DNA of 64,000 bases, taken from an uncultured Nitrososphaerales archaeon (lineage in GTDB: Archaea; Thermoproteota; Nitrososphaeria; Nitrososphaerales; Nitrososphaeraceae). Shown in pieces: positions 10,901 to 13,040 of this stretch. The position numbers and the translations under genes were made by a program. The stretch lies in contig CAVPXM010000055.1 of the NCBI GenBank assembly GCA_963709405.1, positions 1-64,000 of the forward strand, written 5' to 3'. The notes under the pieces were generated by a model. The model had not been told where the DNA came from, did not search any database, and worked only from the letters and a program-made list of their open reading frames with translations. Position 1 is the stretch's first letter. Each line of letters starts with the position of its first letter.

Positions 10901-11620
10901 ATGACACTATTTTTCTTATAATCACGCATGACCTCATACTCAATCTGCTTCCAATGTCCGACATATTTCTCTATAAGCACTTGTCCGACCATACTTAACG
11001 CGAGGCCTCTTTGAACAATTTCTTGGAGCTCGTACTCATTATACGCTACTCCACCTCCCCTTCCTCCAAGGGTATACGCAACGCGGATCATGACTGGGTA
11101 GCCGATACGGCTGGCTGTAGTAAGAGCTTCTTCCACCGAATAGCAAGGGGCACTATCCAATACAGGAACGCCAGATTTGATCATTGCCTCTTTAAACAAT
11201 TGTCTATCCTCAGTAACTTCTATACCACTTACTGGAGTACCGAGTACTCTAATTCCATATTTCTGCAAGATGCCCTCTTTTTCTAAAGATACCCCACAAT
11301 TAAGGGCGGTCTGGCCACCAAACGCCAACATAATAGCATCCGGCCGTTCACACTCTATGACCTGCTTGACAAAACTGGTGGTGATAGGGAGCAAATACAC
11401 TTTGTCCGCAAATTTCTTATCAGTCTGTATTGTTGCTATATTCGGATTAATGAGAACGCTGCCTACGTCATCTTCACTAAGAGCTTTGAGACATTGCGAA
11501 CCGGAGTAGTCGAATTAGCGGTCGATCAATTTATCATGACCAACTTTCGCCCGCTTCTCCAATCTTAATTGCCCCGCTACCCAGTACCAGTACCTTTCTT
11601 ATCGTATCATCCCGTGTCAT
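7960..11620 (-). CDS. carB: Carbamoyl-phosphate synthase large subunit in two exons (11620-11546, 11514-7960); 1209 aa if spliced
   Basis: Exon 1 [25 protein letters not shown] joins exon 2 FDYSGSQCLKAL...NPNIATIQTD. Two ATP-grasp halves (HTGDN, [29 protein letters not shown]) and a C-terminal MGS domain. Confidence 0.95.
11515..11545 (-). other. Candidate 31-nt bulge-helix-bulge mRNA intron in carB
   Basis: Insert AGUUGGUCAUGAUAAAUUGAUCGACCGCUAA contains in-frame UGA UAA. Central helix GGCG/CGCU, bulges AAA and AAU, intron stem GUUGGUCA/UGAUCGAC. Cuts after the second base of each bulge give GGC GAA|UUC GAC. Confidence 0.85.
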
Positions 11621-13040
11621 TTTTCCTCCTAATTTTTAATTCTTCTTTGTTTTGTACTGCTTCATTTTCGGATTCATTGAGATGTATATCATACATATTT
11701 TCTGAGCTTGCAAAATCGATCTTTCTATTAATATTCGGTTTCCTAGTGCTACCACCCTTGTCAGCATCAGGCGCGGTATCAGGAATGTGCAAATTTGAAT
11801 CTAATAAAAGGGTATTTTTATGATTTGTAATTATCTCTTTAAACCTTTGGAAAATAAACGTACAATCATTAGGACCTGGAGAGGCCTCGGGATGAAATTG
11901 GACCGCGATTATCGGCTTGGAAACGTGTTCTATACCTTCAATAGTGTCATCGTCAATGTTTGAGAACCAAACCTTGAATCCTGCTCTTTCCATCGTTTCG
12001 GCTGCTATGCCATAACCGTGGTTTTGGCTTGTGATGTATGTCATATTATTATACAAGTCAAGGCATGGTTTATTCTGGCCTCGATGACCAAATTTCAATT
12101 TGTATGTCTCTGCACCTCCGGCAAGAGCAAGAATCTGCTGCCCAAGACATATTCCGAGAGTTGGTGTAGATTTCTTGATTAGTTCGGTGGCCGTCCTGAC
12201 AGTTTTGCTACAGATTTTTGGATCACCGGGTCCATTACTTATTACTACCCCGGAAGGATTGTAACGCATTACTTCATCAAAAGGAGTATCCCAAGGCAGT
12301 CTAACTACGTTGAATCCCATCTTGAGGATATTTCGAATAATGCTGTATTTCGTGCCAGTATCCAAGAGAACAATTGTCTCTAAGTTGGGAGAACTGGAAT
12401 TTGGGTTTCTATATACTACAGGTTTCTTAGTTGACACTTCGTGCATAAAATTATGAGCGTCATAGCTATAGTCCTTGATCGTTGCATGAATGCCCTCCCT
12501 TTCCTGTTCAGAAGTCAACCTCGATTCAATGGATGGTGAATTAGGAGCGGAGAATCGCTGCACCGATATCGCACCTTTCATTATACCATTTATCCTCAAT
12601 ATCTTGGTTAATTCGCGCGTATCTATATCATATACGCCAGGGATCTTTTCTTCGTAGAGCCATCGGTCCAATGTTTTGATACAACTCCAGTGACTAGCAA
12701 TAGCTGACAAATTATGAATCAATAATCCCTTTATTTGAATTTGATCAGACTCAAAATATTTGGGCAGACCCAAATTCATCTTTCACGTCTTTGTCGGGTA
12801 CCCCATAATTTCCAACAAGTGGATAAGTCAAACATAGTATCTGCCCACGATAGGAGGGATCTGTAAGTGTCTCGGTGTAACCAACCATTCCAGTGTTAAA
12901 TACCACTTCTCCAACAACACTTGTCTCGTATCCAAAACCAATTCCCTCAAAAAGCGTGCCATCTTCTAATACAAACCTACCTTTGTAACCAGAACATGTC
13001 CGCTCAAGTGTTGGAATTTTAGACCCTCGTCTGCTTTCAA
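11607..13040 (-). CDS. carA: Carbamoyl-phosphate synthase small subunit, frameshifted; start uncertain (13040 or 12997)
   Basis: [15 protein letters not shown]...[37 protein letters not shown], then after an extra G at ~12771 [21 protein letters not shown] and [11 protein letters not shown]. Confidence 0.93.
11625..11630 (-). promoter_or_regulatory. Shine-Dalgarno for carB exon 1
   Basis: AGGAGG 4 nt upstream of the ATG at 11620, inside the end of carA. Confidence 0.75.

Follow-up and report, generated by a model that had tools for sequence, protein, structure and literature searches.

The window analysed here is the whole stretch of 64,000 nucleotides (nt) from contig CAVPXM010000055.1 of an uncultured Nitrososphaerales archaeon (GenBank assembly GCA_963709405.1; we call the window's own genome G000), and our subject is its carB gene, whose enzyme starts both arginine and pyrimidine synthesis. 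Coordinates without a locus or contig name are window positions. The carAB genes lie on the minus strand, with carB spanning 11620-7960 directly after carA, and the reading frame of carB is interrupted between the codons of Glu25 and Phe26 by a 31-nt intron of the bulge-helix-bulge (BHB) type, so that this soil-type archaeon needs a tRNA-style intron excised before it can have the enzyme. The intron is real, its structure is conserved, and it is removed from the RNA of a relative. The features of the locus are the following, in the direction of transcription.

11607..12779, minus strand: carA, small subunit, C-terminal open reading frame (ORF); the TIGR01368 match begins at position 64 of 361
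11625..11629, minus strand: Shine-Dalgarno-like GGAGG, 4 nt ahead of the carB ATG, within the end of carA
11546..11620, minus strand: carB exon 1, 25 codons, the last being Glu25; shares its opening 14 nt with the end of carA
11557..11564, minus strand: 5' arm of the outer exon-exon helix
11548..11551, minus strand: 5' strand of the 4-base-pair (bp) central helix H (Gly24 codon and first base of Glu25)
11545..11547, minus strand: 5' bulge, 3 nt; predicted cut 11546/11545, in the same register as in the relative's RNA
11515..11545, minus strand: BHB intron, 31 nt, with an 8-bp stem (11544-11537/11528-11521), an 8-nt loop and the 3' strand of H (11520-11517)
11531..11536, minus strand: two adjacent in-frame stops (TGA TAA) within the loop of the intron; unspliced translation terminates here after 28 residues
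11514..11516, minus strand: 3' bulge region; predicted cut 11515/11514; 4 unpaired nt in the minimum-free-energy fold, hence a relaxed BHB
11499..11506, minus strand: 3' arm of the outer exon-exon helix
7960..11514, minus strand: carB exon 2, Phe26 to stop; spliced protein of 1209 amino acids
11398..11400, minus strand: GTG (Val64), a false start taken by ORF callers

Excision of the 31 nt from 11545 to 11515 leaves a single open frame of the full 1209 amino acids. A preliminary description of this DNA had noted that unspliced translation from 11620 ends after 28 residues, that the two genes overlap by 14 nt, and that the start of the ORF track at 11400 drops 63 N-terminal residues, and each of these details holds, given that the ATG at 11620 opens 25 codons ending in GEAGE, then S-W-S and TGA TAA, that the carA stop finishes at 11607, and that 11400 is a GTG at CarB position 64. 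Full-length CarB indeed requires splicing, because the unspliced frame ends at 28 amino acids and Val64 is not a conserved alternative start. The expectation that annotation shortens such genes was likewise confirmed, for the ORF caller in the window and also for locus L146, and in most of the ammonia-oxidising archaea sampled, CarB is routinely annotated about 63 residues short. Exon 1 by itself matches positions 1-25 of the PRK05294 profile and positions 3-24 of TIGR01369, the first residue of exon 2 aligns precisely with Phe26 of E. coli CarB, and the residues lost from a Val64 start have their counterpart in the conserved N-terminus of CarB proteins of solved structure. Glu25 is a residue that we take to line the carbamate tunnel. 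A look at PMC6245113 did not confirm this.

Three equivalent excision registers all yield the junction GEAGE/FDYSG, and the BHB rule, which places each cut behind base two of a 3-nt bulge, selects one of them, rebuilding the conserved CarB protein. For the 72-nt region the predicted folding energy is -24.1 kcal/mol (z -2.74; 1 of 200 shuffles folded equally well), its core pairs have a probability of 0.99, and the motif is in the top two of 260 frame-restoring candidates genome-wide in G000. The geometry is that of the class, a 4-bp central helix between two bulges, in relaxed form.

For conservation, 140 carB loci were gathered, namely the best 80 of 587 genome contig matches, 30 from 61 relatives and 30 fetched regions, of which 134 were scored, the window's own locus included; L011, L013, L048 and L058 were dropped for short upstream sequence, L140 as the second half of a different G000 carB fragment, and L072 as a separate case inside codon Ile18, described below. 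Some genomes occur twice, hence the reduction to distinct sequences. An insert between Glu25 and Phe26 is present in 83 of the 134 loci (75 distinct introns, 17-52 nt), and since five loci of the same genus (L082-L085 and L137) carry 31-32 nt at the same site, the 31-nt insert of the window is not an assembly error. Pairs 2-4 of the central helix are kept in 75/75 introns and pair 1 in 63/75, with C-G exchanged for U-A in two loci; intron-stem pairs 1-3 are likewise kept in 75/75, and the observed pairing of stem pairs 2-5 was reached by none of 2000 partner shuffles. The same holds on the exon side, where Gly24 is GGC in 73/75 intron loci vs. 4/25 of the intron-less loci having Gly there, and where at least six of the seven outer-helix pairs form in 74/75 intron loci vs. 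6/49 intron-less ones. Synonymous sites around the junction are frozen solely where the intron is present. A covarying structure with a variable interior is thus in place, in loci that are kin and not independent of each other.

Removal of the intron from RNA was looked for in the relative G007, whose genome assembly contains it, in assembled contigs of 4 of the 20 listed runs (X2, X4, X5 and X6). Precisely 26 nt, starting at the predicted cut (L146:7569), are missing from the contigs of X2 and X4, which belong to one study, and of X5, which belongs to a second, and in these three of four runs the spliced form is the only one assembled across the site, with no intron-retaining contig listed there. 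In X4 and X5 the bin depth equals the flanking depth multiplied by 118/144, which by simple arithmetic means that no intron-retaining contig contributes. Contigs lose minority forms, so no ratio of spliced to unspliced RNA follows; the spliced form is probably the majority in the relative's RNA. As for the enzymes, G000 has two PF01974 genes for subunits of the splicing endonuclease EndA, of the two-subunit type that goes with relaxed motifs, and one full-length PF01139 gene for the ligase RtcB (contig C53); one EndA gene lies in the window and the second on contig C63.

36926..37534, plus strand: splicing endonuclease (EndA) subunit gene, PF01974

The genome also holds intron-containing tRNA genes, and EndA and RtcB are presumably the enzymes that splice carB. 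Two more RtcB-like genes, at C22:27378-28755 and C20:88011-88474, are each frameshifted near the N-terminus in the assembly.

The content of the introns was compared with a null in which the core stem and the ends were fixed and the remainder was shuffled in 5000 trials. Among the introns of length 3n, every one (25/25) contains an in-frame stop (shuffle mean 13.3, maximum 18), and the five of them without an inner stop all end in one, vs. 6 of the 20 with an inner stop; among introns of length 3n+2 a stop is found in 16/20 vs. 8.4 expected. The unspliced frame stops at most four codons past the cut in 59 of 75 introns. Selection, then, keeps the unspliced carB message dead, and because the in-frame stops are so strongly kept, ribosomes probably do enter the unspliced message, where read-through would presumably be harmful.

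On a CarB tree of 131 fragments (three were left out as too short), the intron is present in 76 of the 87 loci of a large clade holding Nitrososphaeraceae- and Nitrosopumilaceae-labelled genomes, and within this clade the intron type follows the tree, as under vertical descent. At least three groups without the intron branch from inside intron-bearing ones, which points to at least as many losses among close kin, and in the basal lineages its presence is patchy even between members of a single genus (L133 has it, L134 does not). The intron is therefore dispensable to the cell.

A short structured intron whose protein-catalysed removal restores the reading frame is known from the IRE1/RtcB splicing of HAC1 and XBP1 mRNA, and the carB intron resembles these, except that there a dedicated sensor nuclease triggers splicing, whereas in carB no sensor or regulated step was found. 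The nearest archaeal case is cbf5, whose BHB intron is reportedly treated by Watanabe 2002 and Yoshinari 2006, and the carB intron is a member of this cbf5-type class, in a core metabolic gene. In PMC7714728, cbf5 is given as the sole archaeal mRNA previously known to carry a BHB intron, apart from the case described there, in the 5' untranslated region (UTR) of HVO_1309. By the description in Yokobori 2009 (PMC2738675), the cbf5 intron of Desulfurococcales and Sulfolobales shares with that of carB a short length (16-44 vs. 17-52 nt), a coding position in a conserved motif, a BHB that is often relaxed and is cut behind base two of the bulge, conserved borders around a variable interior, a single gain followed by losses, hosts with a two-subunit endonuclease, a tendency to be mis-annotated as a frameshift, and a proposed but untested role as a negative regulator. 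Unlike cbf5, which encodes an RNA-modifying enzyme, carB encodes a core metabolic enzyme, in Nitrososphaerales; its intron falls at a codon boundary, after the 25th codon, and the gene has a second independent site; and whereas its 3n introns all hold a stop (25/25), some cbf5 introns listed in PMC2738675 keep the frame. The HVO_1309 mRNA of Haloferax volcanii, according to Schwarz 2020 (PMC7714728), is like carB a substrate of the tRNA splicing endonuclease, and removal of its intron seems to matter; that intron, however, sits in the 5' UTR and leaves the frame unbroken, whereas the CarB protein is impossible without splicing. Archaeal tRNA introns of the BHB or bulge-helix-loop type, cut by EndA (PMC12397907), share the motif geometry and presumably the enzymes with carB, which differs from them in being translated, in exon codons that double as helix strands, and in ribosomes that compete with folding. 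Our literature search found no paper describing a carB intron, with the proviso that it covered subscription papers poorly and that a genome paper or its supplement may mention one.

We favour, with moderate confidence, the reading that an ancient BHB intron makes splicing an obligatory and mostly constitutive gate on CarB, and not a nutrient sensor. The carB pre-mRNA would carry this old intron between Glu25 and Phe26; the transcript, judging from conservation and covariation, would fold into a relaxed BHB atop the exon-exon helix; the tRNA splicing endonuclease would cut both bulges, and RtcB would join the exons. Splicing would be obligatory for CarB and mostly constitutive housekeeping, and the early in-frame stop, kept by selection, would hold the unspliced message dead, so that a ribosome that beats the endonuclease makes a short peptide and not a damaged 130-kDa subunit. 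The intron would persist because only an exact deletion within the highly conserved motif is viable, which makes losses rare but harmless. In most of the ammonia-oxidising archaea sampled, a core enzyme thereby comes under the tRNA-splicing machinery, and the old proposal that BHB introns regulate their host gene becomes easy to test, given that the intron occurs in cultured strains, is lost in close kin, and leaves a junction countable in ordinary RNA-seq reads.

Several points weigh against this reading. The counted genomes are kin, and the counts overstate their independence. That 76 of the 87 large-clade loci have kept the intron could mean function and not rare loss, and the association of the intron with weak start codons, set out next, is unexplained by a purely neutral passenger. 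In 3n+1 introns the excess of stops vanishes under the stricter null (26/30 vs. 24.4), because the conserved stem itself supplies TGA. The RNA comes from the relative G007 and not from the window's own organism; its run X6, which is shallow, gave no spliced contig, and one record, at depth 2.1 and maybe from DNA or pre-mRNA, reaches over the intron's first base; and the word "constitutive" leans on three contig-only runs of unknown condition.

The start codons of carB, placed by alignment and Shine-Dalgarno spacing, suggest a different reading, in which a weak start slows initiation while the BHB folds and is cut, so that CarB would follow the balance between ribosome loading and EndA/RtcB, with no metabolite sensed. 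In many carB alleles (L001-L139, L248-L258), a strong Shine-Dalgarno sequence is followed by CTG, ATA, ATT, TTT, TCG or GCG, and these non-standard starts are mostly on intron-bearing alleles. Within the large clade, a standard start (ATG, GTG or TTG) at position 1 or one codon to either side is missing from 28 of 76 intron loci, which have CTG (13), ATT (4), TTT (3), TCG (3) or other codons (5), vs. from none of the 11 intron-less loci, a contrast with a nominal Fisher p of 0.014 among kin that are not independent. Intron alleles have CTG vs. ATG or TTG in intron-less alleles of a Nitrosopumilus-labelled group, and TCG or GCG vs. TTG or GTG in a Nitrososphaera-labelled group.

A further contrast comes from a different intron. 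In L072, from a metagenome-assembled genome labelled Aenigmatarchaeota, an intron lies inside codon Ile18 (L072:2447-2468); its excision was the sole tested one that restored the motif, and its BHB forms 4/4 central and 5/5 stem pairs. Among the 61 genomes around this one, nine have a carB match, and five of the nine loci with the N-terminus carry the Ile18 intron at 21-22 nt (L248 and L250-L253, two of them identical), each of the five with an in-frame stop inside, while the remaining four are intron-less. Its pattern had no match in metagenome contigs. This would be a second, independent carB BHB intron. All five intron loci appear to start with ATA behind GGAGGTGA, whereas all four intron-less ones start with ATG; four of the five have a TTG further inside exon 1.

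Taken together, the intron-less form has the stronger start in three independent contrasts, and the early stops imply that ribosomes encounter unspliced RNA. This start-codon pattern fits the competition between ribosomes and BHB folding, as first proposed in the preliminary description, better than it fits a metabolite switch. On the other side, ATG is used in 22 of the 76 intron loci, and in the window's allele, as in its genus, a strong Shine-Dalgarno sequence precedes ATG; odd position-1 codons also occur in intron-less basal loci (L022, L123, L131, L074 and L134); the independent contrasts number only three, between starts that were themselves placed indirectly, with that inner TTG in most of the Ile18 loci; and the genome-wide background of odd starts is too noisy to use. 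We therefore regard this kinetic control as unlikely, and quite unlikely its wider form, in which a two-part gate, made of a weak start behind a strong Shine-Dalgarno sequence and an intron in the first 25 codons, has arisen twice (at Glu25/Phe26 in Nitrososphaerales and at Ile18 around the Aenigmatarchaeota-labelled genome) and carbamoyl-phosphate supply tracks the capacity for tRNA splicing or ligation; if true, such a gate would be the archaeal equivalent of regulated IRE1-type mRNA splicing, with the core metabolism of ammonia-oxidising archaea as its target. Genes that to the eye resemble cysK, leuB and leuA/cimA also seem to have no standard start at the conserved N-terminus, with CTG in two (G048 at offset 569314 and G000 C55 at offset 405587, both on the minus strand, and G000 C36 at 8783 on the plus strand).

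A regulated switch, in which splicing efficiency would vary with arginine, pyrimidine, ammonia or growth phase, had been the central proposal of the preliminary description; it would resemble IRE1-type splicing in eukaryotes. Splicing is obligatory and the unspliced RNA would be a clean off state, a BHB intron has been gained twice near the 5' end of carB, and there are precedents of a kind, in that a negative-regulator role was proposed, and not shown, for the cbf5 intron (PMC2738675), removal of the HVO_1309 5' UTR intron seems to matter for expression (PMC7714728), and carAB is heavily regulated in E. coli (PMC6245113). The RNA of the relative, with solely spliced contigs in three of four runs, weakens the proposal of a condition-dependent switch, though contigs give no ratio. 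No conserved sensing element was found, whether a ligand or protein site, an alternative fold or a leader peptide: the loop and distal stem vary freely over 17-52 nt, Rfam has no match in 11300-13400, and the read-through peptide is not conserved past its Ser. The at least three losses among close kin also argue against the switch.

Four particular designs fell in the course of this comparison. Masking of the Shine-Dalgarno sequence or start in the manner of a riboswitch is contradicted by the start region, whose unpaired probability changes by no more than 0.15 between spliced and unspliced forms in 75/75 loci. An arginine-sensing leader was suggested by Ser-Arg-stop in Nitrosopumilaceae-labelled loci, and elsewhere the peptide reads Ser-His, Ser-Gln, Ser-Trp or Ser-stop. 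Bypass from an internal start found no enrichment, as position 64 is GTG in 32/83 intron vs. 14/51 intron-less loci, and the first ATG in the carB frame is usually at position 87. Translational coupling through the overlap, which had been read as part of the intron's design, is independent of the intron, being neither universal with it nor confined to it: the -14 overlap is found in 29 intron and 5 intron-less loci, and about 30 intron loci have a carA-carB gap of +5 to +317 nt. The nutrient-controlled switch is accordingly unsupported, weakened rather than refuted, and we hold it to be decidedly improbable.

Very improbable, in our judgement, is an active selfish element, spread by a neighbouring homing endonuclease and without a role for the host, even though the insertion lies in a highly conserved motif, its basal presence is patchy (L133 vs. 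L134), a second intron site is only seven codons away, and PMC2738675 suggests that the cbf5 intron derives from endonuclease-bearing introns. Pfam found no endonuclease family among the 25 ORFs flanking carB, seven of which matched no family; LAGLIDADG_3 (PF14528) is absent from G000 and its genus and has matches in 15 of 61 genomes, none near carB, and LAGLIDADG_2 (PF03161) has none in the 61. No endonuclease gene of a homing intron was found within or beside the carB intron, in a search whose genome-wide part covered these two LAGLIDADG families and left out HNH, GIY-YIG and LAGLIDADG_1. The junction pattern of the Glu25 intron had no match in viral contigs, and the intron type follows the CarB tree in the large clade; an origin by homing in the past may still apply. 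As to an artefact, be it an assembly error, a pseudogene or a CarB made from Val64, we give it practically no credence, since the genuine single-base errors of this assembly (in carA and one RtcB copy) stand against a conserved structured insert in 83 loci, its exact removal in the relative's RNA, a GTG at position 64 that is no commoner with the intron than without, and the conserved N-terminus that such a start would lose.

The suspicion that more such cases lie hidden was right for carB across genomes, the Ile18 site included, and turned up no second gene in a comparison of G000 with G048. This comparison used 11269 candidate joins of G000 and 6072 of G048, covering 1.60 of the 1.62 Mb of G048, and it detects genes common to both genomes whose introns break the frame or hold a stop, G000 having indel errors. 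Spanning matches numbered 48, 74 and 7; the identity filter left 4, 3 and 4 of them, and only carB combined a well-folded motif (0.91) with full identity on both sides; the other candidates are by eye antisense shadows, rRNA-region matches or errors. In G000, mtnA, cbf5 and rnhB follow their models unbroken and free of stops, and C71:3091, the top ab initio candidate besides carB, is by eye a sequencing frameshift. A 17-nt element at G000:C55:248406 (plus strand) is built like the carB intron, with a 4-bp helix, A-rich bulges and a 3-bp stem, and its joined frame scores as non-coding.

Some minor features of the locus and its contig complete the description. The N-terminal part of carA sits in another frame upstream, reaching about 13000, the frame being shifted by one base near 12775, where the sequence can form a perfect 7-bp hairpin (12758-12779), and because carA is unbroken in all four same-genus loci covering that spot, this is probably a sequencing or assembly error. 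CarA of this genus has a long polar C-terminal tail (11607-11870), and its CarB is long as well, with 1184-1197 amino acids past the junction vs. about 1060 in most relatives and with low-complexity inserts. G000 also has a second, diverged carB fragment of 36% identity at C25:538-987, a 457-amino-acid open frame at a contig end of higher guanine-plus-cytosine (GC) content, which is likely foreign or chimeric. In the window itself, the first 5400 nt or so have a GC fraction of 0.6-0.7 and bacterial-looking genes (a MoxR-like ATPase at 4134-5000), the fraction falls to about 0.42 within the 5058-5975 frame, and the other end of C55 is GC-high too; a chimeric join of contigs or an insert of foreign DNA is the probable explanation. 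A scan for sigma-70-type promoters was uninformative, the promoter model being bacterial and the host archaeal. Upstream of carA lie a cupredoxin-like protein (13484-13978) and an MntH-type metal transporter (14137-15445), the N-terminus of the latter in a separate overlapping ORF, perhaps by a further frameshift.

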